64,000 bases of DNA, from NCBI GenBank assembly GCA_050250645.1, contig JBFWOG010000006.1, forward strand, positions 34,387 to 98,386, read 5' to 3'. Numbering within the stretch: the first letter of the stretch is position 1; each line of letters opens with the position of its first letter. The notes below the pieces were generated by a model. The model saw only the letters and a list, made by a program, of their open reading frames with translations. It was not told the DNA's origin and made no database searches. The position numbers and the translations under genes were made by a program. This DNA is from Vicinamibacterales bacterium. GTDB lineage: Bacteria; Acidobacteriota; Vicinamibacteria; Vicinamibacterales; UBA2999. Shown here one piece after another: positions 6,231 to 26,708 of this stretch.

Positions 6231-8570
6231 CTACCCCTGTGCCTTGTCTGCCATGATCCGGCTGGCGGGTGACGGGCCGGAGTCGTTCACGTCACGATCT
6301 TGCAAATTTGTTGCCGTCGTGAGCCCGCGGGCCCCGAGCGCGGTGATGGCCGACAGGCTGGCGATCTCGGCCGCCGTGATGCCCGGGTGGAGGACGTTGA
6401 CCGGCTTGCGAAGGCCCACGAGGAAGGGCCCCAGCACCTCCGCGCGGCTCAGCCGCCGCACCAGCTGGTAGCCGATGTTGCCGGCCGCCAGGCCGGGGAA
6501 CACGAGGACGTTGGCGTCGCCCTGCACGCGCGAATGCGGGTAGCTCTCGCGGGCGATGGCGGGCACGAGGGCCGTCTCGGCATGCATCTCCCCGTCGATG
6601 ATCAGGTCGGGGCGCCTGGCGCGGGCCAGGGCCACGGCCGCCGCGACCCGCTCGGGCAGCGGGCCCCGCACGCTGCCGAAGCTCGAGAAGGCCAGCAGGG
6701 CCACCCGCGGCTCGACGTCGAACAGGCGCGCGATGTCGGCGGTCAGGCACGCGATCTCGGCGAGCTCGGCGGCGGTGGGCTCGATGTTCACCATGGTGTC
6801 GGCGAAGAACAGGAGCCGCTTGGGCAGCACCAGCAGGTGCACGGCGGCCGCCCGGCTGACGCCGGCCTGGAGGCCGACGATCTGGAGGGCCGGCCGGATG
6901 GTGTCCGGGTACGCGCGGTCGAGGCCGCCGACGAAGCCGTCCACCTCGCCGAGGTGCAGCATCAGCAGCCCCCGCACGATCGGGTCGCGCGCCTGGACGG
7001 CCGCCATCGCGGGCGTCATGCCCTTGCGCGCCCGCAGCGCGTAGAGCGCCTCGGCGTAGGGGGCGACGGGCAGGACTGCGGGGTCCACGATGTCGTACGC
7101 GCGCTCGGGAATCTCGAGCCGGGCGGCGCGGGACCGGATGACGTCCGGCCGCCCGATCAGGACCGGCCGCGCCTGCTGCTGGTCGACGATCTCCCGCACC
7201 GCGCGGAGGACCGGTTCCTGCTCGCCGTCGGGGAAGGCCACCCGGTGCGGGGTCTCGGTCCGGGCCTTCCGCGTGACCAGCCGCACGACCTCGCGCGCGG
7301 GGCCCATGTGCCGCTCGAGCGCGGCCCGGTAGGCCGCCATGTCGGCGATGGGCCGCCGCGCCACGCCGTCGGCCATCGCGGCCTCGGCAACCGCCGGCGC
7401 CACCCAGAGCAGCACGCGGGGATCGAACGGCTTGGGAATCAGGTACTCCCGGCCGAACGAGAGGTCCGCGAGGCCGTAGGCCTCGAGCACCGATTCCGGC
7501 ACGACCTCGCGCGCCAGGGCGGCGAGCGCGCGGGCCGCCGCCATCTTCATGCCGCCGGTGATCGTGCTCGCACGGACGTCGAGGGCGCCCCGGAAGATGA
7601 ACGGGAAGCCGAGGACGTTGTTCACCTGGTTCGGGAAGTCGCTGCGCCCCGTGGCCATGAACACGTCGGGCCGCGTGGCGACCGCCAGGTCGTAGGCGAT
7701 CTCGGGGTCGGGATTCGCCATCGCGAACACGATCGGGTTGGCCGCCATGCCGCGCAGCATCGCCGGCGTCACGCAGTCCGCCGCCGACACGCCGACGAAG
7801 ACGTCGGCCCCCTCGAGCGCCTCCTCGAGCGTCCGTCGCGGGGTCTCCGCCGCGAAGCGGGCCTTGTACGGGTTCATCTTCTCCGTCCGGCCCGTGTAGA
7901 CCACGCCGGCGGTGTCGACGAGGAGCACATGGTCGCGGGCGACGCCCAGCTCGACGAACATCTCGGCGCACGCGATGCCGGCCGCGCCGGCCCCCGCGAA
8001 CACGACGCGCACGTCGCCGATGGCCTTGCCGGCCAGGTCCAGCGCGTTCAGCAGCGCCGCCGACGAGATGATCGCGGTGCCGTGCTGGTCGTCGTGGAAG
8101 ACGGGGATCGACAGCCGCTTCCGGAGCGTCTCCTCGATGTAGAAGCACTCGGGCGCCTTGATGTCCTCGAGGTTGATGCCGCCGAAGGTCGGCTCGAGCG
8201 CGGTGACGACGCGGATGACCTCGTCGGGGTCGGCGGCGTTCAGCTCCAGGTCGAACACGTCCACGTCGGCAAAGGTCTTGAAGAGGGTGGCCTTGCCCTC
8301 CATCACCGGCTTGCCCGCGAGCGGGCCGATGTCGCCGAGGCCCAGGACGGCCGTTCCGTTGGTCACGACGGCGACGAGGTTGCCCCGCCCGGTGAAGCGG
8401 TACGCGGCCTCGGGGTCGTCGTGAATGAGCCGGCAGGGCACGGCCACGCCGGGCGTGTAGGCCAGCGACAGGTCCCGCTGGGTCAGGCAGGGCTTGGAGG
8501 TGACGACCTCGAGCTTCCCCGGCCGGGGATGCTCGTGGTAGGCAAGGACGTCTTCATCGCGAAGGATCAC
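6231..8570 (-). CDS. maeB: NADP-dependent malic enzyme (malic enzyme domain + phosphotransacetylase-like domain)
   Basis: [30 protein letters not shown]...[22 protein letters not shown], with a C-terminal PTA-like domain; 779 aa. Confidence 0.9.
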
Positions 8571-8758
8571 GGCACACTACTCCCGGAAGAGGGCGACTGG
8601 TGTCCCTGGGAAGCAAGCCGGATACCACCGGCGCAAGTGCGCGTGAATGGGCAGTTTGGTGGGCGAGCGCCGAGACAGGCCGGGGGCGGCGCCGGATGCC
8701 CGGCGCGGTGCCCGTACGCGAAACCGGCCTGCCCCCGCGGGTCAGGCCGATCCGGAAG

Positions 8759-8805
8759 TGGTGGACGGCGCGGGGCTCGAACCCGCGACCTCCGCGTTGC
8801 GAACG
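8759..8805. repeat. att repeat (left): 47-bp copy of the 3' end of tRNA-Ala
   Basis: TGGTGGACGGCGCGGGGCTCGAACCCGCGACCTCCGCGTTGCGAACG is identical to 18148-18194. The sequence diverges immediately outside the repeat, so this is not a full tRNA. Confidence 0.9.
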
Positions 8806-8922
8806 GCTTTAAGGGGTAATACGCCATAACGCTCCGTCTCGCTCTATCTCCCTAACTGACTGGTATCATTGGCGTTGCTAGCACAGCATCGCCCGTGGTA
8901 TCTTTCGGTCGCAGAAGGAATC

Positions 8923-8941
8923 TGCACCCCTATTGCACCCC
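8923..8941. repeat. 19-bp repeat TGCACCCCTATTGCACCCC (copy 1), putative integrase arm-type site
   Basis: An identical copy lies at 18060-18078. Each copy is internally TGCACCCC-TAT-TGCACCCC. This one lies 118 bp inside the left att repeat. Confidence 0.6.
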
Positions 8942-9003
8942 CGCGCAGAGGGCCGAGGGTGCAAAAAGACGCGAGGGTCGTGAATTCGGAACGGAGACGG
9001 GGC

Positions 9004-10248
9004 GTGAAAACGAAGCTCACCACTGAAACGATCCGCGACCTGACGCGCACCCCACCCGCCAAGACGCTCGACGTCTACGACACCCAGCAGGCCGGGCTCG
9101 TCATGCGCATCCGTCCGTCCGGCGCCTACAGCTACCGGACCCTGCTCGGGCGTGGACGCTGGCATACGCTCGGCGGGTCCGAGTTGAAACTGGCCGAGGC
9201 GCGCGAACTGGCCCGCGGCGTTCAGGGGGAGGTCTCGAAGGCGCGCGCCCTCGGCCAAGACGATCCCGTGCAGGCCCGGAAGGCCGACCAGGCCGCGCTC
9301 ACGCTCACGGGCTACTTTGAGGAGCACTTCGAGCCGTGGGCCACCGAGAACCGGCGTTCGGGCGCCTCGATGGCCGGGAGCATTCGGGCCGTGCTGCTGC
9401 CGGCGTTCGGGCACCTGAAGCTGGCGGCCATCACGCCGTTTGCGGTGGAGCGGTGGCGGACGGCACGGCTCAAGGCCGGCGTGAGCCCCAGCACCATCAA
9501 TCGCAACCTCGACGACCTCAAGGCGATGCTCTCCCGGGCCGTGACCTGGAAGCTGATCCCAGCGCATCCGATTGCCAGCGTGCGCCGGTTGCGTATCGAC
9601 CGGGCCGCGACGGTCCGGTATCTGACTCCCGCCGAAGAGGCCCGGCTCCTGGCGGCGCTCAAGGCCCGCGACGACGCCCGGCGAGCCGAGCGCGAGGCGT
9701 CCAACGCCTGGCGCCGGGCGCGTGGGTACGCCGAGTGGCCGGAGTTCGGCACCTACACCGACGCGTTGACGCCGGTCGTGACCCTGGCCCTCCACACCGG
9801 CCTGCGGCGCGGAGAACTATTCTCGCTGTGCTGGCGCGACGTGAACCTCGACGCCGCCATGCTGACGGTGCAGGGCGCCACGGCGAAGAGCGCGCAGACC
9901 CGGCACGTCCCGCTGAACGACACCGCCACGACGGTGCTCACGGCGTGGAAGCCATCCGGCGCCGCGCCCGGCGATCTGGTCTTCCCGTCCCCCGCCACGG
10001 GCGACCGGTTCGTGACCTTGAAAACCTCCTGGAGCGGGTTGCTCAAGGCCGCGACGATCACGGCGTTCCGGTTTCACGATTGCCGGCACACGTTCGCGTC
10101 CAAGCTCGTCATGGGCGGGGTGGACCTGAACACCGTCCGGGAGCTGCTCGGGCACAGCGATCTCAAGATGACGCTCCGGTACGCGCACCTGGCGCCGGAG
10201 CACAAGGCCGCGGCCGTCGCGGTGTTGGTGGTGTCCAGTGGCACATAG
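9004..10248 (+). CDS. Tyrosine recombinase / phage integrase, P4-type with an N-terminal arm-DNA-binding domain
   Basis: The N-terminus reads KLTTETIRDL...LDVYDTQQAGLVMRIRPSGAYSYR...LKLAEARELA. The C-terminus reads HDCRHTFASKLV...LLGHSDLKMTLRYAHL (R/HxxR/Y catalytic pattern). A GTG at 9004 is preceded by GGAGACGG; the ORF is open from 8869. Confidence 0.9.
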   Translation: MKTKLTTETIRDLTRTPPAKTLDVYDTQQAGLVMRIRPSGAYSYRTLLGRGRWHTLGGSELKLAEARELARGVQGEVSKARALGQDDPVQARKADQAALTLTGYFEEHFEPWATENRRSGASMAGSIRAVLLPAFGHLKLAAITPFAVERWRTARLKAGVSPSTINRNLDDLKAMLSRAVTWKLIPAHPIASVRRLRIDRAATVRYLTPAEEARLLAALKARDDARRAEREASNAWRRARGYAEWPEFGTYTDALTPVVTLALHTGLRRGELFSLCWRDVNLDAAMLTVQGATAKSAQTRHVPLNDTATTVLTAWKPSGAAPGDLVFPSPATGDRFVTLKTSWSGLLKAATITAFRFHDCRHTFASKLVMGGVDLNTVRELLGHSDLKMTLRYAHLAPEHKAAAVAVLVVSSGT

Positions 10249-10855
10249 CCGCCCAGCCCGCGGAATCGGCACAGCTGCGGACGCCGAACGGCTAGCGATT
10301 GCCGCGACGACGTTCACGAACCTGCTGATGAGCGACGCGAGGGTCGTGGCGCACTACCGGTCATGGTTACGCGCGCGCGGACTCGACGCCAGGATTGCGC
10401 GCCTGCGCCAGCAGCCCACGACGGCGGAGGTCGAAGACTTTGGCGCTACGCTCGTGTCCGACCCGCGCGGCGACGTCGAGGCGCTGAACGCCCTGACACG
10501 CGATGAGTTGCGGTTGTCGTTCGACTGGCTGCCGGTGCTGCTGCTCGTGGCCTATCGTACGCAGGCATACAAGGAAGCGCGCGGTGACGCCGAACACACG
10601 GCTGTCGCCTTAGGCATCCGCACGGCGCTGCCACAGGGACGCCGCGCGCGCCATCAGGGCGAGGACATCGCGCGGAACGTGGCGTGGTACTACCGCACGA
10701 AGGTGCAATGTCCCACAGAGAGTGTGCGCGCCATCGCCCTGGAGTACGCCACCGCGTCGGGGCGAGCGAACGACGCCCGATCTGTGATCCAGAACGGCAT
10801 TGGTCAGGCCGCGGCGCTGCTCGATCTCGTCGTCGCGGACATCCACGACGAGTAG
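10238..10855 (+). CDS. Hypothetical protein, possible C-terminal HTH regulator
   Basis: The ORF overlaps the integrase stop. The C-terminal segment SVRAIALEYATASGRANDARSVIQNGIGQAAALL looks HTH-like. The start is uncertain (GTG 10238 or ATG 10328). Confidence 0.45.
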   Translation: MAHSRPARGIGTAADAERLAIAATTFTNLLMSDARVVAHYRSWLRARGLDARIARLRQQPTTAEVEDFGATLVSDPRGDVEALNALTRDELRLSFDWLPVLLLVAYRTQAYKEARGDAEHTAVALGIRTALPQGRRARHQGEDIARNVAWYYRTKVQCPTESVRAIALEYATASGRANDARSVIQNGIGQAAALLDLVVADIHDE

Positions 10856-10894
10856 GCCCAGCTAAGTAGGCACCCCCGCCGCCTAAGTAGGCAC
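10851..10894. promoter_or_regulatory. Three direct copies of AGTAGGC(A/C)C, two of them within CTAAGTAGGCAC; putative operator upstream of the xis-like gene
   Basis: Copies lie at 10851, 10865 and 10886. The 12-mer CTAAGTAGGCAC occurs at 10862-10873 and 10883-10894. The site sits in the 56-bp spacer before the ATG at 10912. Confidence 0.35.
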
Positions 10895-10911
10895 TACTCG
10901 GCCCGTCGGCT

Positions 10912-11154
10912 ATGTCGCACCATCGCGATATGGCTGAGCACACCACACTGTCCACGACGACCACCCTCGCCGAGCCCGACGCCGCCCACTACATCGGTTA
11001 TCGGCCGGCGGCCCTCCGGGCCTGGCGGCGCGAGGGGCGCGGCCCGGCGTACGTCCGTCACGGCCGCAGCGTCCGGTATCTCGTGGCGGACCTCGATGCG
11101 TGGCTGGGCGCTCACCGCGTCGAGCCCGCTGCCGAGCGGGGTGCCCGTGGCTGA
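10912..11154 (+). CDS. Excisionase/AlpA-family helix-turn-helix DNA-binding protein
   Basis: LAEPDAAHYIGYRPAALRAWRREGRGPAYVRHGRSVRYLVADLDAWL matches the excisionase-family HTH pattern. Confidence 0.7.
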   Translation: MSHHRDMAEHTTLSTTTTLAEPDAAHYIGYRPAALRAWRREGRGPAYVRHGRSVRYLVADLDAWLGAHRVEPAAERGARG

Positions 11155-12835
11155 CGATCCCGCCGAGCGCGTCAGCCCGCACGACCTCGCGGCCGAGCGC
11201 GCGGTGCTCGGCGCCGTGCTGATCGACGGCGACGTGTACGCGACGGCCTCGGCGATCGTCGAGCCCGAGACGTACTACCGCCGCGCGCACGGCGAGATCT
11301 GGCGGGCGATCGTGGCGCTCCGGACGCGCGGCGAGCCGGCCGATCTGGTGACCGTCTGCGGCGAGCTGGGGCGGGCCGGACTGCTCGAGGACGTCGGCGG
11401 TCCCGCCTACGTCGCGGCGCTGATCGATGGCGTCCCGCGCGCCACGAACGTCGAGTACTACGCCCGTACCGTCCGCGACATGGCGGCGCTCCGTGCCATC
11501 GACGCCGAGGCCGCCGCGATCGTCGCGCAGGTCCACGCGGGCGACGACCCTGCCGAGATCGTCGAGACGGCTGCCGCCCGGCTCGACGGCATCCGGACGC
11601 GTCTGGCGGGAGGCGGACTCACTTCGCGGCGTGCCGTCGCGCTGACTCCTGCCAGCACGATGTCGATCGCAGCCGTGCGTTATCTCTGGAGCCCCATGAT
11701 GTCGCTCGGGGCCTTCGGGCTCTTGGGCGGCCGCGAAGGGATCGGGAAGACGATCCTCGCGTACACGCTCGCGGCGCTCGTGACGCGAGGCCAACTAGTC
11801 GGAGACCTTCAAGGGTATCCGCGCGCCGTCATCATCTCGGCAACCGAGGACTCATGGGAACACACCATCGTGCCGCGTCTAATGGCGGCCGGGGCCGACC
11901 TCGCACTCGTCTACCGGGTCGACGTCCGGCTGGCGTCGGGTGCAGACGGGACACTGAGCCTGCCGCTCGACGTGGCCGAACTGCGGCGGGTGATCGACGA
12001 GGTTGGGGCCGCACTCGTCATCCTCGACCCGCTCCTGTCGCGCCTCGACGCTGCCCTCGACAGCCACAAGGACGCGTCGGCCCGGCTCGCGCTGGAGCCC
12101 CTCGCCCGGCTCGCGTCAGACACCGGCGCCTGTGTGCTCGGCCTCATCCACGTCAATAAGAGCACCTCAAACGACCCGCTCACGATGTTGATGGCGTCGC
12201 GTGCCTTCGCCGCGGTCGCCAGGTTCGTCCTGTTCGCGATGGCCGACCCGAACGACGAGGGCCGCCGGTTGCTCGGGCTCGCCAAGAACAACCTCGGGCG
12301 GTCGGATGTGCCGACCCTGTCCTACCGCATCGTGGGGCACCTGGTCGGCCACAGCGAGACAGGCGACGTCTGGACCGGCAAGCTGGAGTGGCTCGGCGAG
12401 TCAGACCAGAGCATCCGAGACGCGGTTTCGAGCGCCACGGATACCGGCGACCGGACAGCGACAGCCGAAGCCGCGGACTGGCTCGTGGACTTCTTGGGCG
12501 ACAACGGCGGAGCTGCGGACTCTGCCGAGGTCAAGCGCGCAGGGGCCAAGGCCGGGCACTCGGCGGACGCCCTGAAGCGAGCCAGGCAGCGCTTGCGCAT
12601 CACCGCGTTGTCCGTAGGCTTTCCTCGGCGCACCGTCTGGAAGCTGTCGGAGCAGCAGTCAGAGCAGCCCGCTCACCAGTCTCCGCCCACTGCACCCACT
12701 GCGCCAACTGGAGACATCTCTAAAGAACTAACTAACTATTCAGTGGGAGCAGTCGGTGCAGTCGGTGCAGTCGGCGGAGACGTGAAGGCTGCTGCGCCCA
12801 CTGGCCGGGAGGACTGTGATGCACACCGAGTCTGA
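11141..12835 (+). CDS. Replication protein: DnaB-helicase N-terminal domain fused to a RecA-like P-loop ATPase (AAA_25/RepA-like)
   Basis: The N-terminus reads PHDLAAERAVLGAVLIDGDVY...YRRAHGEIWRAIVALRTRGEPADLVTV...YVAALIDGVP...NVEYYARTV. The Walker A-like motif is LLGGREGIGKT. The GTG start overlaps the xis stop. Confidence 0.7.
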   Translation: MPVADDPAERVSPHDLAAERAVLGAVLIDGDVYATASAIVEPETYYRRAHGEIWRAIVALRTRGEPADLVTVCGELGRAGLLEDVGGPAYVAALIDGVPRATNVEYYARTVRDMAALRAIDAEAAAIVAQVHAGDDPAEIVETAAARLDGIRTRLAGGGLTSRRAVALTPASTMSIAAVRYLWSPMMSLGAFGLLGGREGIGKTILAYTLAALVTRGQLVGDLQGYPRAVIISATEDSWEHTIVPRLMAAGADLALVYRVDVRLASGADGTLSLPLDVAELRRVIDEVGAALVILDPLLSRLDAALDSHKDASARLALEPLARLASDTGACVLGLIHVNKSTSNDPLTMLMASRAFAAVARFVLFAMADPNDEGRRLLGLAKNNLGRSDVPTLSYRIVGHLVGHSETGDVWTGKLEWLGESDQSIRDAVSSATDTGDRTATAEAADWLVDFLGDNGGAADSAEVKRAGAKAGHSADALKRARQRLRITALSVGFPRRTVWKLSEQQSEQPAHQSPPTAPTAPTGDISKELTNYSVGAVGAVGAVGGDVKAAAPTGREDCDAHRV

Positions 12836-13121
12836 GCCCACCCGATTCGTGTGGTTGACCGGCGGCCGGCCGGTCCCGGTCGCGGCCGTCGAGATCGCCC
12901 TCGACCTGGAGCGGCGTGGTATCCGCATGTGGCAGGAAGGCGAGCACCTGCTGTTGCAGGGGCGCGACCTGACCGATGCGGACCTGGACCGGGTCCGGCC
13001 GTGGAAGCCCCACATCCTCGCCATACTGGCCTACACGCCGTCTGACGCGCACCTCTGGGACGGCGGCAGCCGGCGGCCCAGTACGCCAACCGCACCAGCC
13101 ACCACACGGAGAACTCAATGA
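12816..13121 (+). CDS. Hypothetical small protein (TubC-N-like docking motif)
   Basis: AVEIALDLERRGIRMWQEGEHLLLQGRDLTDADLDRVRPWKPHILAIL resembles the short domain common on phage and plasmid replication modules. The ORF overlaps both neighbours. Confidence 0.5.
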   Translation: MMHTESEPTRFVWLTGGRPVPVAAVEIALDLERRGIRMWQEGEHLLLQGRDLTDADLDRVRPWKPHILAILAYTPSDAHLWDGGSRRPSTPTAPATTRRTQ

Positions 13122-13387
13122 CCGCGACCGACGTTGAACTGCCGCCGATTCCCGTGCACGTCGAGGACACCCCGGCCGGTCTGGTGCTCGTGACCGACGA
13201 CGGGATGCGGTTGCCGGCGCTGGACGGACGTGGTACGGCGACGCTCATCATGGCCCTCTTCGCGGGCCTGAACGCGCACGATCCCGTGGCGTTCCGCGAA
13301 ATGATGGACGCCATCGCCGGGGCCATGACACGCCTCGGGGCGGAGGTGGCCGCGCTGGCGAACACGCCGCCTGGGCCCGCGCACTGA
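13118..13387 (+). CDS. Hypothetical protein (89 aa)
   Basis: ATGA overlap with the upstream ORF and coding-like third-position GC; no family recognised. Confidence 0.45.
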   Translation: MTATDVELPPIPVHVEDTPAGLVLVTDDGMRLPALDGRGTATLIMALFAGLNAHDPVAFREMMDAIAGAMTRLGAEVAALANTPPGPAH

Positions 13388-13388
13388 G

Positions 13389-13799
13389 ATGGACGATCGC
13401 GAACGCCTCCGTCGTCTGCGGACCGCCCGGCGTCTCGGGCGCATCCCGCCGGACCTCATGGCCTGGCTCATCACCGTCGCCGAGCGGGTCGTCGAGGGGC
13501 CAACAGACGAACGCTCGACGCCGGCCGAGGACCTCGCGGACCAGCTCGGCGACGAGATCGCGGCCGCGATGGCCCGATGCGGCGCCAGCCAACGGAAGCT
13601 CGGGGCCAACCGGCGGACGCTGGCGCGCGCGCTCGCTGGGGATGATGTCCGCCTCTCGAGCGTGGCCGTGCTGGCTGATCTGCTCGGGTGCGTCGCTGAG
13701 ATCCGGCTCGTGCCTCGGGAGGGCGGCGCGAATACGGCCAGATGTGTCACCACCCCCTGTGACGGCCCGACACTGGACGCAGGGGAGGTACCCACATGA
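13389..13799 (+). CDS. Hypothetical protein with a possible XRE-like HTH
   Basis: Contains GASQRKLGANRRTLARALAGDDVRLSSVAVLADLLG. It begins 1 nt after the previous stop and overlaps the capsid ATG by 4 nt. Confidence 0.5.
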   Translation: MDDRERLRRLRTARRLGRIPPDLMAWLITVAERVVEGPTDERSTPAEDLADQLGDEIAAAMARCGASQRKLGANRRTLARALAGDDVRLSSVAVLADLLGCVAEIRLVPREGGANTARCVTTPCDGPTLDAGEVPT

Positions 13800-15124
13800 A
13801 TTCGCTCAAGCAGCAACTTCGCGCCGACCTTCTGGCGGAGGTCGACGGGCTTCAGGAGCCCGGCACACGGAAATTCAGGGACCCGGAGCGCGTCGACCAC
13901 CTGCTCACGCTCGTGGAGGCCCTGGACGGCCGCCAGGGGGCCAGCGAGCAGGCTCGCGCCGAGGTTCTCGACATGCTGGCCACCCGCAGCGACGCCGTCG
14001 GTATCGACTCGAAGCATGCGGGCGGCCCGGCCGGCCGTGGCGGGTCGCACGAGACCATTCCGCTGATGGCCGAAGCCATCGCGCACCGGTACACCGGCGG
14101 AACGCTCAGCGACGCCGCGCGGCCGTACCGCAACCTCCGGCTGGCGGACATGGCGCGGCATCTCCTCGAAGCGCGGGGCATCCATGCCCGGCACGAGAGC
14201 GACCTGTGGGTCGTGCAGCGCACCTTCGCGGGGCACACGACGAGCGACTTCCCGTCGCTGCTCACCGAGACCGGAAACCGCGTGCTCCGGCAGGCGTACG
14301 ATGCGGCGCAGTCCGGCGTGCGGGCCATCGCGCGGCAGACGACGGCGCGGGACTTCCGGCCGCTCAACAAGCTGAGCCTCTCCGCGGCGCCCGGCCTCCT
14401 GAAGGTGAACGAACACGCTGAGATCACCCGGGGCACGATGGCCGCGACCAAGGAGTCGTACTCGCTCGAGACGTACGCCCGCATCTTCGCGCTGTCCCGC
14501 AACGCGATCATCAACGACGACCTCGGCGCGTTCGTGGACTTCACGCGGCGCCAGGGACAGGTGGCCGCCGAACTCGTTGCGTCGAAGCTCGTGGCACTGC
14601 TCACGAGCAACCCGACGATGAGCGACAGCACGGCCCTGTTCCATGCGGACCACGCCAACCTGGGCACCGCGGCAGTCATCAACGTGACCTCGTTGGGCGA
14701 GGCTCTGTCGCTCATGCGCCTGCAGACCGTGGCGATGGATGACGGGACCGGCGGGACGAACGGCACGATGCCGATCAACGCCGTCCCGAAGTTCCTGCTC
14801 GTGCCCGCCGCGCTCGAGGTCGTGGCCAAGCAGTACGTGGCGCAGGTCAACGCGACGAAGGCCAGCGACATCAACCCGTTCTCGAGCGAGCTGGAGGTCG
14901 TCGTCGACCCGCGTCTCGACGCGTCCAGCGCGACCGCGTGGTATCTCGCGGCCGACCCGGCCGTGATCGACACACTGGAGTACGCCTACCTGGACGATGC
15001 CCCCGGCCCGCAGTACGCGGCGCGGGAGGGCTTCGACATCATGGGTGTCGAGATGCGCGTGTCGCTCGACTTCGGCTGCGGCGTCCTCGACTGGCGCGGC
15101 CTCGTGAAGAACGCCGGCGCGTAG
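13796..15124 (+). CDS. Phage major capsid protein-like (HK97-fold family, inferred) with an N-terminal extension of about 150 aa
   Basis: The core motifs HTTSDFPSLL...ARDFRPLNKLSL...YSLETYARIFALSRNAIINDDLGAF...ATAWYLAADPAVIDTLEYAYL resemble tailed-phage major head proteins, recognised from memory only. The N-terminal part is helical and charged. Confidence 0.65.
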   Translation: MNSLKQQLRADLLAEVDGLQEPGTRKFRDPERVDHLLTLVEALDGRQGASEQARAEVLDMLATRSDAVGIDSKHAGGPAGRGGSHETIPLMAEAIAHRYTGGTLSDAARPYRNLRLADMARHLLEARGIHARHESDLWVVQRTFAGHTTSDFPSLLTETGNRVLRQAYDAAQSGVRAIARQTTARDFRPLNKLSLSAAPGLLKVNEHAEITRGTMAATKESYSLETYARIFALSRNAIINDDLGAFVDFTRRQGQVAAELVASKLVALLTSNPTMSDSTALFHADHANLGTAAVINVTSLGEALSLMRLQTVAMDDGTGGTNGTMPINAVPKFLLVPAALEVVAKQYVAQVNATKASDINPFSSELEVVVDPRLDASSATAWYLAADPAVIDTLEYAYLDDAPGPQYAAREGFDIMGVEMRVSLDFGCGVLDWRGLVKNAGA

Positions 15125-15139
15125 ACGCCGACGCGAAGC

Positions 15140-15161
15140 CTGGGCGTTGCCACACGCCCAG
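15140..15161 (+). terminator. Hairpin after the capsid gene (CTGGGCGT-TGCCAC-ACGCCCAG)
   Basis: A perfect 8-bp stem lies 16 nt after the stop codon. It has no clear U-tract. Confidence 0.35.
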
Positions 15162-15327
15162 CGTTGGATGGACGTCGGGCGTTTCTCCGGCGTCCGGCGT
15201 CCACCAACACCGTAGCAGCTGGAACCTGGGCCCCGCCCCCCGGGGGCCTTAGGTTCTTCCGGACGCCATCCCGAAGCGGGGGGACGGGCGCAGAAACGCG
15301 CCAGATTCCAAACGGCCCAGAGGGCTA

Positions 15328-15861
15328 TTGGCTACGGAGATCATGACAGAACGACAACTCCTGACACGTCTCGAGCTCGCCGAGGCCCTGAAGGGCGAAC
15401 TGCCGACGGGCCCCCACCCGGTCAGCATCTCGAAGTGGGTCCAACAGGGGATGCCCGTCGCCGAGCGCGGCAGAGGCGGCCGGCCGTCCCGCTACGTGCT
15501 GGCAGATGTTCGCGCATGGTTGCAGCGGCGGGCGCAGGCGGCAGCTGGCGGCGCGGCGACCGACGTCGCCCAGGAGCGAGCGCGGTACTTCCGCCTGCAA
15601 GCGGACAAGACAGACCTCGATGTCCGGAAGCGACAAGGCGAACTTGTGGATGTCCGCGAGGTCGAAGAGCGGTGGGCCGCGATCGTCGCGGCCGTCCGGG
15701 AGCGCATCTTGTCGTTGCCGAGTGCCGCGCTGCAGCAGGGGATCATCCCGCCGGAGCGCGAGGACGCACTGGTCGTGCTGTGCGATGAGGCGCTGACGGA
15801 CCTGGCGGCGCGCGGGCGACACGGCGTTGCGGCGAGCGCCCCGGTGACGTCGCTCCGGTAA
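15328..15861 (+). CDS. Terminase small subunit, Nu1-like (N-terminal HTH)
   Basis: LTRLELAEAL...VSISKWVQQGMPVAERGRGGRPSRYVLADVRAWL...ERARYFRLQADKTDLDVRKRQGELVDV is the Nu1/Terminase_5 pattern. The start is TTG 15328 or ATG 15343. Confidence 0.7.
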   Translation: MATEIMTERQLLTRLELAEALKGELPTGPHPVSISKWVQQGMPVAERGRGGRPSRYVLADVRAWLQRRAQAAAGGAATDVAQERARYFRLQADKTDLDVRKRQGELVDVREVEERWAAIVAAVRERILSLPSAALQQGIIPPEREDALVVLCDEALTDLAARGRHGVAASAPVTSLR

Positions 15862-15949
15862 GGGGGGCGAGGGCTTCGCCGAGCGCCGCGCCCCCCAACG
15901 GGACGAGGGACCCTGGCGAGCCTCGCCACACCAATGCGGGGGGCGCGGC

Positions 15950-16438
15950 TCAGAGACCGCCGCGGCCCGCTTTCCGGGCCTCATCGTCCTGGTACTCGAT
16001 CGGCTTGCCGGAGCGCGTCTCGACGACCGTCAGCGAGGTGCGGATGATGGACTTGCCAATCTCGAAGACGGCGGCCTGTTCCTTGCCCGCGGCATCGGTG
16101 AACGAGATCGTCAAGAAGTGCTTGCGCTTCTTGGAGAAGAGCGCCCAGGGGGTCACGAGCAACGCCACGGCGACGCGGCGACCAGCCTTCTGGCCGTACT
16201 CCAGCCCCGTGATCGACGCGTACGGGATGCTGACCGGCTCGCCTTTCTTCTTGTCGGGCGTGAAGACGAGCGCGTTCTCGTCGCGGGTGTCGAATACGCC
16301 CTCCACGCGTTCGCCTAGGCCACTGAGGGTTCCGCCGACGTACTCGGCCTTCTTGCTGCCGACGGCAAGTCCGGTGAGCGGGCTGAGTAGAGCGAGAACG
16401 AGAACCGATGCGGTCAGACGGCGGGCAGGGGAAGACAT
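15950..16438 (-). CDS. Secreted or membrane-associated hypothetical protein (163 aa), counter-oriented cargo gene
   Basis: It has the signal peptide MSSPARRLTASVLVLALLSPLTGLAVG. The ATG at 16438 was chosen over the longer track ORF. It is the only minus-strand gene in the element. Confidence 0.6.
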   Translation of the reverse strand: MSSPARRLTASVLVLALLSPLTGLAVGSKKAEYVGGTLSGLGERVEGVFDTRDENALVFTPDKKKGEPVSIPYASITGLEYGQKAGRRVAVALLVTPWALFSKKRKHFLTISFTDAAGKEQAAVFEIGKSIIRTSLTVVETRSGKPIEYQDDEARKAGRGGL

Positions 16439-16571
16439 CGTCGCAGCTCCTTCAGGTAGGGGCGCGCCGCCGGGGGGAAGGCGGTCACGGCGCGACGTGC
16501 GGCTGGAGTCTACGGCAGGCGGGGCGCGACGGCAAGTTGTCGCCGCTTCGATACGCGCCGCGCGTTCGCGC

Positions 16572-16600
16572 TTGACTCCCGCGAGAGGCGGGCGTAGAAA
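16572..16600 (+). promoter_or_regulatory. Candidate sigma70-like promoter: TTGACT, a 17-nt spacer, then TAGAAA
   Basis: Read directly in the divergent spacer 16439-16726. The spacer contains CCCGC..GCGGG. This is a weak call. Confidence 0.3.
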
Positions 16601-16726
16601 GACAGGGACCGGCAGGAGCGCTAACTCCTGGCCGGCCCCCTGACCATCGAACCATGCAGCGGTTCGACGGCTGCCCCGCATTTTACGGCATCCGCCGCGC
16701 CGTTGCCTTCCGCCTGAGGAGGCAAC

Positions 16727-17290
16727 ATGTCACGCAAGCAGACCCACGCGAAGTCCCGGACCTCGTCATCGTTCACGCCGGAGGCCTTGGCATTCCTTGA
16801 AGGTCTCGACGTGCCTGCCCAAGCCCTGTTGCTCGAGCTGGCGGGCGGGTTTCAGCGAACCCCGGAGCCGGCGCCCGTGGACCACCTGATGACCGCGGCG
16901 CAGTTGGCCGTTCACAAGCGCCGCTACGACCGCGTGGTGCAGATCGAGCAGCAGGACGAGCGCGAGGCCCTCCAGCGCGAGATCGACGCGCTGCGCTTTC
17001 CGACGCTGGAGGAGCGGGTCGGGTCCGCCCGCCGGGCGCTGCTGCTGATCCACGCGGCGTTGTCGTGCGATCAGAATGCGCGCGAGGAGGAGGCGATCGA
17101 CGCGGCCGCGCGCCTGGCGCGCGATGCGGCCGACGAGCTGTTCTGGATTGAGCGGCAGCCGGCGGAGCTGTTGTCCCAGCCGGTGCCCGACAGCGATGGC
17201 GCCCGGGAGCTGGAGCAGCTACGCGAGCAGTTGGCCACCCTCGAAGCGCAGACGGATGCCGCCGGGGCGGACGCGCGGGGGGCCCGATGA
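16727..17290 (+). CDS. Hypothetical acidic, helical protein (187 aa)
   Basis: The ORF is preceded by GAGGAGG and has good third-position GC; no family recognised. Confidence 0.5.
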   Translation: MSRKQTHAKSRTSSSFTPEALAFLEGLDVPAQALLLELAGGFQRTPEPAPVDHLMTAAQLAVHKRRYDRVVQIEQQDEREALQREIDALRFPTLEERVGSARRALLLIHAALSCDQNAREEEAIDAAARLARDAADELFWIERQPAELLSQPVPDSDGARELEQLREQLATLEAQTDAAGADARGAR

Positions 17291-17434
17291 GCGCGCCCGT
17301 CCTGACGTTCCAGCGGCGCGAGGCGCCCGCACCGGCGCCCGCCAAGCCGTTGCCGGACTCGGCCGTCCGGACACTCGCCAGCCTGCTCCATCTCTACTCC
17401 ACGCGACCGGCAGCGGCCGACAAGGTCGAATCGG
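17287..17434 (+). CDS. Hypothetical ORF fragment (frame 1); coding signal stops near 17434 without an in-frame stop
   Basis: ATGA coupling to the previous gene. Third-position GC is high up to about 17433 and then collapses, and the frame stays open to 17793. Confidence 0.3.
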
Positions 17435-17449
17435 TTGATTCAACTGGTC

Positions 17450-17599
17450 ATGGACGAATTGCCCGAGCCGGTACCGGAACGGCTCTACGACTTGGCCGAC
17501 CTGGTGATCGACCTCGAGGAGCTGGGCCGGGTCAAGCCCGCCCTCGTGGCAGCCGTGGGCCGGTTGGTCCGCAATGCGCTCGAGGAGGCGGGACGGTGA
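17450..17599 (+). CDS. Small hypothetical protein (49 aa, frame 2)
   Basis: MDELPEPVPERLYDLADLVIDLEELGRVKPALVAAVGRLVRNALEEAGR has strong third-position GC. An alternative TTG start lies at 17435. Confidence 0.4.
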   Translation: MDELPEPVPERLYDLADLVIDLEELGRVKPALVAAVGRLVRNALEEAGR

Positions 17600-17701
17600 G
17601 CCGGCTGCAGGCGGGCGCCATCTGGGTACGCGCTCGGGGCCAACCGGAAGAACGGGCACCGGCTCAACGCTCAGGACAAGCGGCACGCGATCCTACTGGC
17701 G

Positions 17702-18007
17702 TTGCAGACGTGGCCGGACAAGAGCCAGAACGACATCGCCGCGCAGATCGGTTGCTCGCAACGGCACGTATCGACTGTGCGAGCCGAGGTTAGAACTACT
17801 TCTAACCTGCCCGATCGCGTGACCGGCAAGGACGGCAAGAGCTACCCGGCCAGCCGATCGACACCCGCGCCGGACTCGCCGCAGGTGACCGCGCCAGCGC
17901 CCACGCCGGACGGGCGCCTCGACAAGTCCCGCGGGCCGCGCGCGCGTCTTCGAGCGCCAGCGCCCCCGATGACCGCGACGGCATCGTCAACGACGTCGGC
18001 CGCATAG
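17702..18007 (+). CDS. ParB/KorB-like HTH protein (possibly truncated or frameshifted at its 5' end)
   Basis: The same frame reads GANRKNGHRLNAQDKRHAILLALQTWPDKSQNDIAAQIGCSQRHVSTVR from about 17624. The first canonical start in that frame is the TTG at 17702. Confidence 0.5.
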   Translation: MQTWPDKSQNDIAAQIGCSQRHVSTVRAEVRTTSNLPDRVTGKDGKSYPASRSTPAPDSPQVTAPAPTPDGRLDKSRGPRARLRAPAPPMTATASSTTSAA

Positions 18008-18059
18008 GACCACCACGGGCGGGCGCTGGGCAGGGCCGGCGCTCGCCTTTGTTCGTCGT

Positions 18060-18078
18060 TGCACCCCTATTGCACCCC
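18060..18078. repeat. 19-bp repeat TGCACCCCTATTGCACCCC (copy 2), putative integrase arm-type site
   Basis: Identical to 8923-8941 and in the same orientation. It ends 70 bp inside the right att repeat. Confidence 0.6.
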
Positions 18079-18087
18079 AGACGCGAG

Positions 18088-18115
18088 CAGGGCGCCGATT
18101 GGTGTCGGCGCCCTG
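18088..18115 (+). terminator. Intrinsic-terminator-like hairpin (11-bp perfect stem CAGGGCGCCGA / TCGGCGCCCTG, 6-nt loop) followed by a T-rich tract
   Basis: Read directly. It is followed by GCTTGTAAGTGCTTTGTTTTGAGTGCTTT, an AT-rich patch that is unusual in this window. Confidence 0.45.
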
Positions 18116-18147
18116 GCTTGTAAGTGCTTTGTTTTGAGTGCTTTAGA

Positions 18148-18194
18148 TGGTGGACGGCGCGGGGCTCGAACCCGCGACCTCCGCGTTGCGAACG
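18148..18194. repeat. att repeat (right): the 3' 47 nt of the intact tRNA-Ala
   Basis: Identical to 8759-8805. Confidence 0.9.
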
Positions 18195-18223
18195 CGGCGC
18201 TCTCCCAACTGAGCTAGCCGCCC
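18148..18223 (-). tRNA. tRNA-Ala (anticodon CGC), CCA encoded
   Basis: Hand-folded from the reverse complement GGGCGGCTAGCTCAGTTGGGAGAGCGCCGCGTTCGCAACGCGGAGGTCGCGGGTTCGAGCCCCGCGCCGTCCACCA. It has a 7-bp acceptor stem with a G3:U70 wobble, anticodon loop TTCGCAA, and T-loop TTCGAGC. Confidence 0.9.
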
Positions 18224-24482: not shown

Positions 24483-24551
24483 CGCGGAACCTCGAGCCGG
24501 GGAGCTCGGGGCCGATGATAACCCGCCAGGGGCCGGAAGGGACGTGCGCCG

Positions 24552-26546: not shown

Positions 26547-26650
26547 GCCCCCGGAAATCGCAAAGCCTGTGCCCGCACGCCGCTGCAGTCACAAGTCTTT
26601 AGAAAAGAGTCATTTACGGTCTATTTTGAGGGCTGGGACCACCCGGCTGG

Positions 26651-26667
26651 TGTGTAAGGATTACACA
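26651..26667. promoter_or_regulatory. Palindrome TGTGTAA-GGA-TTACACA in the AT-rich spacer upstream of the second subtilase
   Basis: Read directly. It lies about 105 nt upstream of the ATG at 26546 (minus strand), in the only AT-rich patch of the protease block. Confidence 0.3.
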
Positions 26668-26708
26668 GGGAGTGGGGAACGGCCGGGTTAGGCAGGGCAG
26701 CGCGGGTG

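Follow-up and report, generated by a model that had tools for sequence, protein, structure and literature searches.

The insertion at tRNA-Ala and its genes

In the window analysed here, a 64-kb stretch of a soil genome of Vicinamibacterales (Acidobacteriota), 9,389 bp form a discrete insertion at a tRNA gene. Its boundaries are perfect 47-bp direct repeats (8759-8805 and 18148-18194; spacing 9,389 bp), and the right copy had been described in the earlier note as the 3' end of tRNA-Ala(CGC). Repeat comparison, ARAGORN and Rfam (tRNA, 65 bits) all agreed with this description. The sole tRNA found by ARAGORN in the whole window is a minus-strand tRNA-Ala(cgc) at 18148-18223, and the right repeat is thus the tRNA 3' end. 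An empty site was found in a related Vicinamibacterales MAG (L177), in which the same flanking genes surround a single, simple tRNA-Ala site with no element. The GC3 of the element (0.79-0.92) is below that of the host (about 0.96). The features of the locus are as follows.

8759-8805: attL, a 47-bp repeat 100% identical to 18148-18194; stand-alone copy of the tRNA-Ala 3' end
8933-8964: candidate integrase arm-type sites near attL, TTGCACCCC and an inverted copy
9004-10248, plus strand: tyrosine integrase of the P4/arm-binding type (PF00589, 4e-28; phrog_1, 2.5e-65)
10328-10855, plus strand: protein following the integrase, 175-205 aa, with a positional analogue in most relatives
10930-11154 (ORF from 10912), plus strand: AlpA/Xis-like HTH_17 regulator (PF12728, 4e-9; phrog_66, 1e-8)
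11147-12835 (ORF from 11096), plus strand: replication protein with a DnaB N-terminal domain and an AAA_25 P-loop domain
12642-12774: short tandem repeats with 12-, 9- and 9-nt units in the 3'-terminal part of rep; candidate iterons of an origin
12819-13387, plus strand: two small ORFs (100 and 89 aa) coupled through overlapping stop and start codons
13389-13799, plus strand: o136, Xre/Cro-type HTH protein, family-specific partner of the protease-less capsid protein
13796-15124, plus strand: HK97-fold major capsid protein (MCP) without a protease domain (PF25209, 7e-54; phrog_4523, 5e-127)
15125-15342: spacer between MCP and TerS, containing hairpins and, at 15249-15260, the conserved motif TTAGGTTCTTCC; candidate site for packaging or regulation
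15343-15861 (ORF from 15328), plus strand: small terminase (TerS), Nu1/DUF1441-like wHTH (phrog_57, 6e-20; phrog_141, 9e-10)
15950-16438, minus strand: counter-oriented 162-aa ORF with a signal-peptide-like N-terminus (MSSPARRLTASVLVLALLSPLTGLAVG...)
16727-18147, plus strand: right arm, with a 187-aa ORF at 16727-17290, small ORFs of weak signal at 17435-17599 and 17702-18007, and two copies of TTGCACCCC at 18059-18078
18148-18223, minus strand: intact tRNA-Ala(CGC); bases 18148-18194 are attR

The integrase ORF is open from 8869 and is called by NCBI as a 414-aa protein; its Int_N and Arm-DNA-bind_3 matches are weak and under the Pfam cut-offs. The putative arm-type sequence TTGCACCCC occurs three times in the 64 kb (8933, 18059 and 18070) against 0.5 expected, and near attL it forms an inverted pair (8933-8943 and 8954-8964). 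The product of 10328-10855 may be a regulator and had no family match in Pfam, PHROGs or PADLOC. ORFs of 170-220 aa also follow the recombinase in seven relatives (L087, L088, L089, L170, L171, L173 and L176), with no mutual sequence similarity detected among them. The phrog_66 family of the AlpA-like protein is annotated as 'excisionase and transcriptional regulator', and the replication protein matched PF00772 (1e-28), PF13481 (2e-25) and phrog_10729, 'DNA polymerase/primase' (1e-41). Judging from where PICI and plasmid origins sit, the repeats reported by Tandem Repeats Finder in the rep gene (12642-12668, 12686-12710 and 12741-12774) are a candidate origin. Homologues of the 100-aa ORF follow the rep gene in L004, L087, L089 and L173 (1e-7 to 1e-11), and the 89-aa ORF has a homologue in L087.

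On the right side, the counter-oriented ORF is probably accessory cargo; it had no Pfam, PHROG or PADLOC match, and the reverse ORFs at the same position in relatives are not homologous to it. The right-arm ORFs had no family matches in the same three collections, and the coding signal is poor from 17291 to 18147. A ParB/KorB-like HTH protein had been proposed here, but the proposal was not supported: there was no family match, and just an HTH-like stretch is visible in 17702-18007.

Otherwise the gene content was as first described, with the integrase, AlpA-type HTH, DnaB_N replication protein, MCP and TerS recognized by Pfam and PHROGs. The reported lack of other virion genes was also confirmed. 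No ORF of the element matched a Pfam or PHROGs family of portal, large terminase (TerL), protease, tail or lysis proteins, and tblastn with the TerL, portal and tape-measure proteins of relatives found nothing in the element or in the rest of the 64 kb. There was no helper prophage in the window and no PADLOC defence match in the element.

Capsid gene, small terminase and related elements

The MCP covers only positions 259-644 of the phrog_4523 profile, which is the capsid half of a protease-capsid fusion, and carries an N-terminal helical extension of about 80 aa that is delta/scaffold-like. The product had been expected to adopt an HK97 fold, and this is how it modelled: the AlphaFold2 model (pLDDT 87, pTM 0.75) was matched best by Foldseek to the procapsid MCP of phage JBD30, and then to many HK97-fold capsids and encapsulins at a probability of 1.00. 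Every invariant column of 120 homologues is retained. The MCP core has identities of 36% to Rc phages and 42-56% to prophage or MAG fusions. The gene directly upstream, o136, occupies this position in all 10 short-MCP loci versus none of about 165 other loci, and represents just 22 clusters in 1.84 billion representative proteins. HTH_26 was matched in 18 of 21 family members, and there is a weak PDB match to Xre-family antitoxins. In IMG/VR, the o136/short-MCP family gave one match only, truncated at a contig end.

The assignment of 15328-15861 as a Nu1-like small terminase is supported by phrog_57, with DUF1441 under its cut-off (20.8 bits). L004 has a homologue (2e-36) that overlaps with the 5' end of a GpA-type TerL gene, and no TerS was detected in several family members (L087 and L170). 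In the preceding spacer the folding z-score is -3.1 and covariation gives no support to the structure. The 12-mer TTAGGTTCTTCC occurs once in the window. Its core AGGTTCTTCC (10-12 nt), 82 nt upstream of the terS ATG, is shared by eight elements including that of the window; in the seven others, all small, it is on the plus strand and 5' of a small wHTH or TerS-like ORF, against an expectation of 0.1 exact matches to the 12-mer. Because it was not found in about 100 related prophage and phage loci, a cos site common to helpers is unsupported.

Eight diverged relatives are elements of 8.7-11.6 kb with flanking direct repeats, and their MCPs are 50-62% identical to that of the window. Those listed below are flanked by direct repeats, with their genes in the same order.

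L004: 10,810 bp, tRNA-Gly
L087: 8,700 bp, tRNA-Leu
L088: 9,850 bp, tRNA-Lys
L089: 9,439 bp, tRNA-Glu, serine recombinase (also in L170)
L171/L172: 9,755 bp, tRNA-Thr
L175: 9,786 bp, tRNA-Arg
L176: 11,580 bp

In six of the seven relatives with a tRNA in the retrieved DNA, this tRNA differs from that of the window. The element is part of a conserved group of 8.7-11.6-kb tRNA-integrated elements, a group that is little described. Since the relatives are themselves small and repeat-flanked and not pieces of prophages, we do not regard the window element as a prophage fragment. L004 retains the GpA TerL, and tape-measure-like genes are present in L088, L171 and L176. The same MCP lineage also occurs in cfPICI-like loci of Alphaproteobacteria (TerS, TerL, portal and protease-MCP), as well as in full prophages that have a TerS-TerL-portal-protease/MCP module and would make plausible helpers.

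A probable helper-dependent satellite and the rival readings

The element has genes for its own shell and for packaging specificity and nothing else for building a virus, and therefore most probably parasitizes a helper phage. We suggest, with a probability of roughly 75%, that it is a helper-dependent phage satellite of PICI-like order (int, AlpA, rep, morphogenesis, terS) that is inserted in a Vicinamibacterales chromosome at tRNA-Ala(CGC). In the best reading, both the capsid protein and the packaging specificity come from the satellite itself. In favour are the repeats at the tRNA, the empty site of L177, the HK97 fold, the missing virion genes, the diverged relatives, the invariant pairing of o136 with the MCP, the motif 5' of TerS-like genes, the occurrence of this capsid lineage in full prophages, the GC3 below that of the host and the retained invariant columns of the MCP. 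Against the satellite reading we counted that the window has no helper prophage, that the o136/short-MCP family is nearly missing from IMG/VR, that the motif was not found in the related prophage and phage loci, that several family members have no detected TerS, and that all copies of the exact window element occupy one and the same site, which gives no sign of recent mobility for this copy. A Logan contig (L002, 9,419 bp) is collinear with the integrated form and therefore does not show a circle.

The single site of the window copy would also suit a larger element in decay, originally a cfPICI-like satellite or a prophage, which can no longer be transmitted after losing its portal, TerL, protease and connectors. 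The poorly coding right arm and the gradient of content among relatives, from the TerL of L004 to the cfPICI-like loci of the same capsid lineage, point in that direction. However, at least eight independently integrated and diverged relatives share the reduced architecture within a narrow size range, the ORFs are intact and translationally coupled, and tblastn recovered no degraded copy of a TerL, tape-measure or portal gene. The short MCP with its own conserved N-terminus and obligate partner o136 indicates selection on the reduced form, and we consider decay improbable.

It is likewise improbable that the element is an integrative island built from phage parts mainly for defence, in which the capsid homologue and TerS act on an infecting phage, spoiling its capsid or altering the capsid size and drawing off its terminase, without efficient self-transfer. 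Known satellites do block helpers by capsid redirection and TerS competition (PMC10085698), the MCP alone may yield dead-end shells as the element has no protease, and virome searches gave no evidence of the element. Nevertheless, the integrase, AlpA and replication module are kept in all members, the tight size range is expected if the element itself is packaged, and PADLOC recognized no defence system; in known satellites, moreover, interference and self-transfer are not mutually exclusive. Membership of the cfPICI family proper, which hijacks tails only, would fit the HK97-fold MCP, the TerS and the order int-alpA-rep-head genes. It is extremely unlikely, and gene content rules it out for the window element: TerL, portal, head-tail adaptor and connector and protease, the components that define cfPICIs (PMC10085698), are all absent, and at most 5 of 11 core components are present here against 9-11 in accepted types.

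For the satellite reading we propose the following life cycle. A helper siphophage or myophage would infect or be induced, with a lambda-like head module like that of the related prophages (Nu1/GpA terminase, portal and protease-MCP fusion). The element would then be excised by its integrase and AlpA-type regulator and replicated by the DnaB_N/AAA_25 protein, possibly from the iteron-like repeats. Expression of the coupled operon o101-o89-o136-MCP would provide the protease-less MCP, which would bring its own N-terminal scaffold-like helices and assemble on the helper portal into a small shell with room for about 9-11 kb. The helper protease would be used and, being fused to the MCP in related phages, would co-assemble. 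The satellite TerS may bind satellite DNA, possibly at or near AGGTTCTTCC, and recruit the GpA-type TerL of the helper. Helper connectors and tails would finish the particle, and in a new cell the integrase would put the element back into tRNA-Ala.

Relation to known satellites

By gene content, the element is close to PICIs as modelled in SatelliteFinder, especially those of the Gram-negative AlpA-type (de Sousa et al. 2023, PMC10085698), with the same core set and order of integrase, AlpA, replication, capsid-related gene and terS. The size is alike (PICI median 9.5 kb; PMC10085698), tail, holin, portal and connector genes are absent, and both are chromosomal with direct-repeat flanks. However, the capsid gene here encodes a complete HK97-fold MCP close to phage MCPs instead of a capsid-remodelling factor, the replication protein belongs to the DnaB_N/AAA_25 type and the host phylum is Acidobacteriota.

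SatelliteFinder places mycobacterial phiRv1/phiRv2-like elements in the PICI class (PMC10085698), and the 'candidate PICIs' of Mycobacterium are defined by an integrase and a capsid gene in a small integrated region, which lies at a tRNA gene when the integrase is a tyrosine one (PMC10654092). Compared by description, these are also integrated elements of about 9-11 kb in high-GC hosts without a full virion gene set, have a serine recombinase alternative like L089 and L170, and are not known to be mobilised; o136 and AGGTTCTTCC are specific to the group described here. phiRv1/2 additionally carry a prohead protease, and their capsid is in a different Pfam family (HK97 gp5 type).

The EPIP satellites of Mycolicibacterium (about 11 kb; PMC12822802, preprint) encode an MCP, TerS, an HTH protein and a recombinase and, like the window element, no portal or TerL. 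They have a tape-measure gene, reported as unusual, and tape-measure-like genes also occur in the relatives L088, L171 and L176. The window element differs in having no tape-measure, head-tail adaptor, stopper or separate scaffold gene, in its tyrosine instead of serine integrase and in encoding its own replication protein. EPIPs have been obtained as particles, whereas the window element is known only as an integrated sequence.

cfPICIs (Alqurainy et al., bioRxiv 10.1101/2022.09.08.507074) likewise encode their own HK97-fold capsid protein and TerS; without TerL, portal, protease and head-tail connectors, the window element would need far more than helper tails. Phages with a protease-MCP fusion and a lambda-like Nu1/GpA terminase (such as Rhodobacter phage RcMamaDuck and the prophages in L011-L086) share the homologous MCP core and the same Nu1/DUF1441 TerS type, but they are complete at 37-42 kb, with portal, TerL, tails and lysis genes, and their MCP has the N-terminal protease domain that the satellite MCP is without.

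The earlier note, written without knowledge of the host, had considered a capsid and TerS satellite in a high-GC host an undescribed type and a candidate new family. The first claim fails, as phiRv1/phiRv2, the 'candidate PICIs' and EPIPs are already known. A new family is too strong a term because mycobacterial PICI-class elements and EPIPs have been described, and the element should be called a variant or sub-family of PICI-like capsid-encoding satellites. Our literature search found no satellite reports for Acidobacteriota. If the satellite reading is true, the element would be a PICI-like capsid-encoding variant in this phylum.

Boundaries and the tRNA-Ala site

The element is bounded by a perfect 47-nt direct repeat at 8759-8805 and 18148-18194, with a start-to-start spacing of 9,389 bp. 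The right repeat is the 3' end of the only tRNA in the window, a tRNA-Ala(cgc) on the minus strand at 18148-18223 (Rfam, 65 bits), and the left repeat is a free-standing copy. The window has a G+C content of 71.7%, and GC3 was 0.79-0.92 for the genes inside the repeats, whereas host genes on either side have a GC3 of about 0.96. The coordinates and the description of the element in an earlier note, made from the sequence alone, proved to be correct. That note had proposed comparing relatives for an empty tRNA-Ala site, and synteny and alignment of the attB site both place one in L177, a Vicinamibacterales MAG that carries the best homolog (87% identical) of the flanking malic-enzyme gene, which makes an acidobacterium the host of the element. 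The gene order in L177 equals that of the window flanks (S8 peptidases, a 670-aa protein, GT2, a 328-aa protein, malic enzyme and LolA), the element is absent from a 331-bp gap with one tRNA-Ala(cgc), and the attB rebuilt from the window aligned with L177 from end to end.

The tRNA-Ala genes of L177 (9725-9800) and the window (18148-18223) differ in the T stem and the anticodon stem, by changes that compensate each other. One such pair crosses the att boundary, and thus the crossover region extends to the anticodon arm and the tRNA was left intact by the insertion. The sequence TTGCACCCC has only three copies in the window, none further than about 180 bp from the att ends, and is a candidate arm-type integrase site.

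The same element was found in three further assemblies at 99.98-100% identity, and L001, the one of these with host flanks, has it at the same site. A Logan contig of the element (L002) has a length of 9,419 bp, or 9,389 + 30, with a 30-nt overlap between its two ends. We rejected it as a circular form, because it is exactly collinear with 8759-18177 of the integrated element and an assembly break at the repeat with k=31 explains the overlap equally well; it is thus no evidence for excision. In the host flank, the minus strand at 22260-28775 has three tandem paralogous genes of 664-740 aa, one of which, fully inside a public record of the same sequence, is annotated as an S8 peptidase with fn3 domains. 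They adjoin the GT2 glycosyltransferase and the unknown 670-aa protein, and the block is kept in L177.

Gene content and capsid protein

Genes between the repeats, from Pfam and PHROG scans and the gene calls of the public record L001
9004-10248, +, integrase (PF00589, 4e-28; phrog_1, 2.5e-65; weak Arm-DNA-bind_3 and Int_N)
10328-10855, +, protein without a family match in the Pfam and PHROG scans
10930-11154, +, HTH_17/AlpA-like regulator (PF12728, 4e-9; phrog_66)
11147-12835, +, replication protein (DnaB N-domain, 1e-28; AAA_25, 2e-25; phrog_10729, 1e-41)
12819-13799, +, three small ORFs with overlapping or abutting stop and start codons
13796-15124, +, major capsid protein, MCP (PF25209, 7e-54; phrog_4523 'major head and protease protein', 5e-127, aligned only at positions 259-644 of the profile)
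15125-15342, non-coding spacer between MCP and TerS
15343-15861, +, small terminase, TerS (phrog_57, 6e-20)
15950-16438, -, 162-aa ORF with a signal-like N-terminus in its translation
16727-17290, +, 187-aa ORF without a family match
17291-18147, about 850 bp with a weak coding signal

The element is a discrete, tRNA-targeted integrative element with an integrase, an AlpA-type regulator, a replication protein, an intact MCP and a TerS, and the rest of the virion gene set is absent from it. Homologs of the AlpA-like protein in the relatives match Phage_AlpA. TerS is a candidate lambda Nu1-type small terminase, with a strong match to PHROG TerS families (6e-20) and 20.8 bits against Pfam DUF1441, under the cut-off of 35.1. 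Pairing with a GpA-type large terminase (TerL) was seen only in the related locus L004, where the TerS homolog adjoins one; the window element does not have a TerL. Among the element ORFs, Pfam and PHROG gave no match to portal, TerL, protease, tail, lysis or defence families; no ORF upstream of the MCP matched a prohead protease, and a PADLOC scan of the unassigned ORFs was negative. The ParB/KorB-like HTH proposed in the earlier note did not appear in the family scans. By tblastn, none of the GpA TerL, portal, tape-measure and other head or tail proteins of the relatives (including a prophage panel of 862 proteins from clusters of at least five members) matched the element or the rest of the 64 kb, in which helper-type genes were likewise not found, and the right arm had no remnants of TerL or tape-measure genes.

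The MCP matched PF25209 (Phage_capsid_4) with 184 bits, against a cut-off of 27. Modelling with a 24-sequence alignment was unusable (pLDDT 54) and was redone with 120 sequences, giving an AlphaFold2 model with a pLDDT of 87 and a pTM of 0.75. In a Foldseek search of the PDB, the procapsid MCP of phage JBD30 came first, followed by dozens of HK97-fold capsids and encapsulins, all with a probability of 1.00, which bears out the HK97-like capsid that had been read from the sequence. The family profile of the MCP also weakly matched the sequences of Mu GpT-domain MCPs in the same PDB entries. In the model, residues 2-67 form three confident helices preceding the HK97 core, which may represent a delta or scaffold-like domain.

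The homologs of the MCP fall into two length classes. The short class (about 430-463 aa), to which the window protein belongs, aligns from query residue ~5 and has its own N-terminal helix in common. The long class (about 580-650 aa) has an N-terminal prohead protease of S78 or ClpP type, and its alignment to the query begins only at residue ~31-51. Monophyly of the protease-less MCPs was not recovered in a rough NJ tree, in which they form two adjacent clades and eight sequences with the protease are scattered among them.

Relatives, partner gene and conserved motif

In a scan of one genome per species, the MCP lineage occurred in more than 585 genomes, mostly of Proteobacteria. The gene maps of the scanned loci showed that most are full prophages with the order TerS, TerL, portal, protease/MCP, decoration, tail and tape measure. 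A subset looks cfPICI-like: tails are absent, and the genes are rep, TerS, TerL, portal, protease-MCP, an integrase and two small head genes. Loci of the latter kind were seen in Alphaproteobacteria and Binatia (L015, L016, L018, L019, L021, L024, L025, L026, L034, L040 and L053), with a GpA TerL and often an integrase. Tail genes are missing within 10 kb, and the loci have the appearance of cfPICI-like satellites on the same capsid lineage. The cultured relatives, with 36% identity in the MCP, are 37-42-kb Rhodobacter phages in which the protein is annotated as 'major capsid and protease fusion protein'.

The closest homologs of the MCP, 50-62% identical, sit in small elements laid out like that of the window.

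Small relatives; size is set by flanking direct repeats, and the target is the tRNA at one repeat where the fetched DNA includes one
L004, 10,810 bp, tRNA-Gly, MCP, TerS and GpA TerL
L087, 8,700 bp, tRNA-Leu, MCP as the last gene
L088, 9,850 bp, tRNA-Lys, tape-measure-like 917-aa gene (11549-14302) after MCP
L089, 9,439 bp, tRNA-Glu, serine recombinase, TerS upstream of MCP
L171/L172, 9,755 bp, tRNA-Thr, decoration protein and weak tape-measure-like 771-aa gene (L171 9463-11778)
L175, 9,786 bp, tRNA-Arg, protease-MCP
L176, 11,580 bp, no tRNA found, protease-MCP and TMP_3 protein (7022-8803; TMP_3, 1e-34; phrog_973, 5e-62)

Within this one capsid lineage there is a gradient of modules, from MCP alone, through MCP with TerS, MCP with TerS and TerL, and MCP with a tape-measure-like protein, to cfPICI-like full head modules. 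Three elements of 9.8-11.6 kb (L088, L171 and L176) have the tape-measure-like gene beside the MCP and lack other tail genes, recalling EPIP satellites. Two back-to-back tyrosine integrase genes lie by a short-MCP element at tRNA-Thr (L171 1531-4242 and L178 5058-7281), as if two elements had integrated in tandem at a single att site. Two of the relatives have toxin-antitoxin pairs of HigB/HigA type, L087 (4648-5227) inside the repeats and directly after the integrase gene, and L175 (11095-11714) about 850 bp past the 17-bp repeat taken as the element end. These pairs probably serve for stabilisation or as accessory modules.

The gene directly before the MCP is o136, a 136-aa ORF at 13389-13799, and all short-MCP loci have a homolog of it at the corresponding place (1e-14 to 1e-36). 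Its HMM matched 10 of 10 short-MCP loci and none of about 165 others, among them prophages and small elements with a long MCP. When 1.84 billion representative proteins were searched exhaustively with HMMER, only 22 clusters came up, all of about 90-180 aa except for one weak match. IMG/VR contained a single locus, a word-indexed homolog search returned only the query itself, and two metagenome scans with o136 alignments gave no match. The C-terminal half is a Cro/C1/Xre-type HTH (HTH_26 in 18 of 21 members), with a weak match to Xre antitoxins in the PDB. The o136 protein could be a regulator of the morphogenesis operon or a DNA-recognition factor.

The spacer between MCP and TerS had a folding z of -3.1 against shuffles of the single sequence. 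An eight-sequence alignment of the spacer gave no covariation-supported structure (-2.1 kcal/mol) and Rfam matched only the tRNA, so we treated the conserved element in it as a sequence motif rather than an RNA structure. This motif, TTAGGTTCTTCC, has one copy in the window (15249-15260). It recurs exactly in L004 (11744-11755), L008 (2065-2076) and L088 (8694-8705), and, differing at one or two positions that lie outside the core, in L053 (7878), L173 (5191), L176 (5446) and L178 (9050), for a chance expectation of about 0.1 exact 12-mer matches, based on composition, in 2.4 Mb of loci. Across eight elements its form on the coding strand is (T/G/A)(T/C/A)AGGTTCTTCC, 10-12 nt long. Apart from the window, seven independent small elements have the core 10-mer AGGTTCTTCC on the plus strand, each time about 40-170 nt upstream of TerS or a small wHTH ORF, and it occurs once on the minus strand in the 2.4 Mb. 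The eight small capsid elements bearing it come from different phyla, and it was not found in the fetched related prophage and phage loci. A cos site common to helpers is thus unsupported, although those loci are not cognate helpers themselves. We consider AGGTTCTTCC a candidate packaging-recognition or operon-control site.

Satellite interpretation and proposed life cycle

We believe that the element is a phage satellite, with a probability of about 0.75. Its family is conserved, with a range of sizes that fits a small capsid, and the comparative evidence supports well the satellite interpretation made in the earlier note. Could it be prophage debris instead? Part of the right arm has only a weak coding signal. 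The narrow sizes and the conserved gene order of the small relatives, despite their divergence and different integration sites, argue against it.

Among the described satellites, the PICI is close in organisation, and, compared by function, the element has a match or a candidate for each of the five functions in the core set of the SatelliteFinder model (PMC10085698). The integrase at one end, a regulator of alpA type (the model also admits merR and stl homologs) and the small terminase are present. For the pri-rep slot, covered by five profiles in the model, the candidate is the DnaB_N and AAA_25 protein as identified by Pfam and PHROG, and for the slot of the 'capsid' and 'capsidPE' profiles it is a full MCP as identified by Pfam, PHROG and structure. 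None of the components forbidden in a PICI (tail, holin, portal, head-tail connector or adaptor) was found, and the element is as long as the median PICI (PMC10085698). Membership in the cfPICIs is ruled out by the absence of TerL, portal, adaptor, connector and protease: for terL there was no match, including by tblastn with the GpA TerL of L004, and for portal, head-tail adaptor and connector there was none in PHROG or Pfam, nor with the prophage panel by tblastn. With P4-like satellites, the element has only the integrase and the AlpA-like HTH in common, and no ORF fell in the PHROG families for the psu-delta-sid operon, epsilon or the P4 alpha primase. Marine VEIMEs have no capsid genes (PMC9618062), and MulchRoom and MiniFlayer have TerL and portal (PMC10690885).

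The closest described analogues are the mycobacterial candidate PICIs and the EPIP satellites. The former, including phiRv1/phiRv2, are defined by an integrase and a capsid gene (PMC10654092; PMC10085698), and the element resembles them by this operational definition, being small and integrated with an integrase, a major capsid and a partial virion set (PMC10654092). EPIP satellites are 11 kb long and encode a tape-measure protein besides MCP and TerS (PMC12822802). The earlier suggestion of an undescribed type was thus overstated.

Each single detail of the life cycle is held with much less confidence than the satellite interpretation as a whole. A helper phage would trigger excision and replication, possibly from iteron-like repeats at 12642-12774. 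The satellite MCP would assemble on the helper portal into a small shell; as scaled from T=7 phages of 40-48 kb, a genome of 9-11 kb would perhaps need T=3 or T=4. The helper protease would mature this shell; in this capsid lineage it is fused to the helper MCP and so would co-assemble with that of the satellite. The satellite TerS may redirect a GpA-type TerL of the helper, and helper connectors and tails would finish the particle. A more specific and rather doubtful idea is that the elements with a short MCP and o136 are a distinct cross-phylum satellite lineage practising 'capsid substitution'. They would supply only a protease-less MCP and its dedicated Xre-type partner, build a small shell on the helper portal that is matured by the helper's MCP-fused protease, and package through the satellite-specific AGGTTCTTCC, which a TerS-like wHTH protein of the satellite would recognise. 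The choice of helper parts to be replaced might be tuned by optional TerL, tape measure and decoration proteins.

Phage satellites shape gene transfer and phage resistance. To our knowledge, they are known almost wholly from Proteobacteria, Firmicutes and a few Actinobacteria. A full-text literature search found no report of satellites in Acidobacteriota, and the host phylum therefore appears to be new, as do the protease-less PF25209 MCP with an obligate Xre partner, the conserved motif and the graded module content among the relatives. The element and at least eight relatives on other MAG or metagenome contigs extend capsid-encoding mini-satellites to Acidobacteriota. As markers for surveys and experiments, one could use the 10-nt motif, the obligate Xre-HTH partner gene and the MCP that lacks the protease and has an N-terminus of its own, and the module gradient bears on how satellites derive from phage modules or shed them. 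If capsid substitution is true, no satellite system would have been described in Acidobacteriota before this one, and its mode of hijacking would lie between those of PICI and cfPICI.
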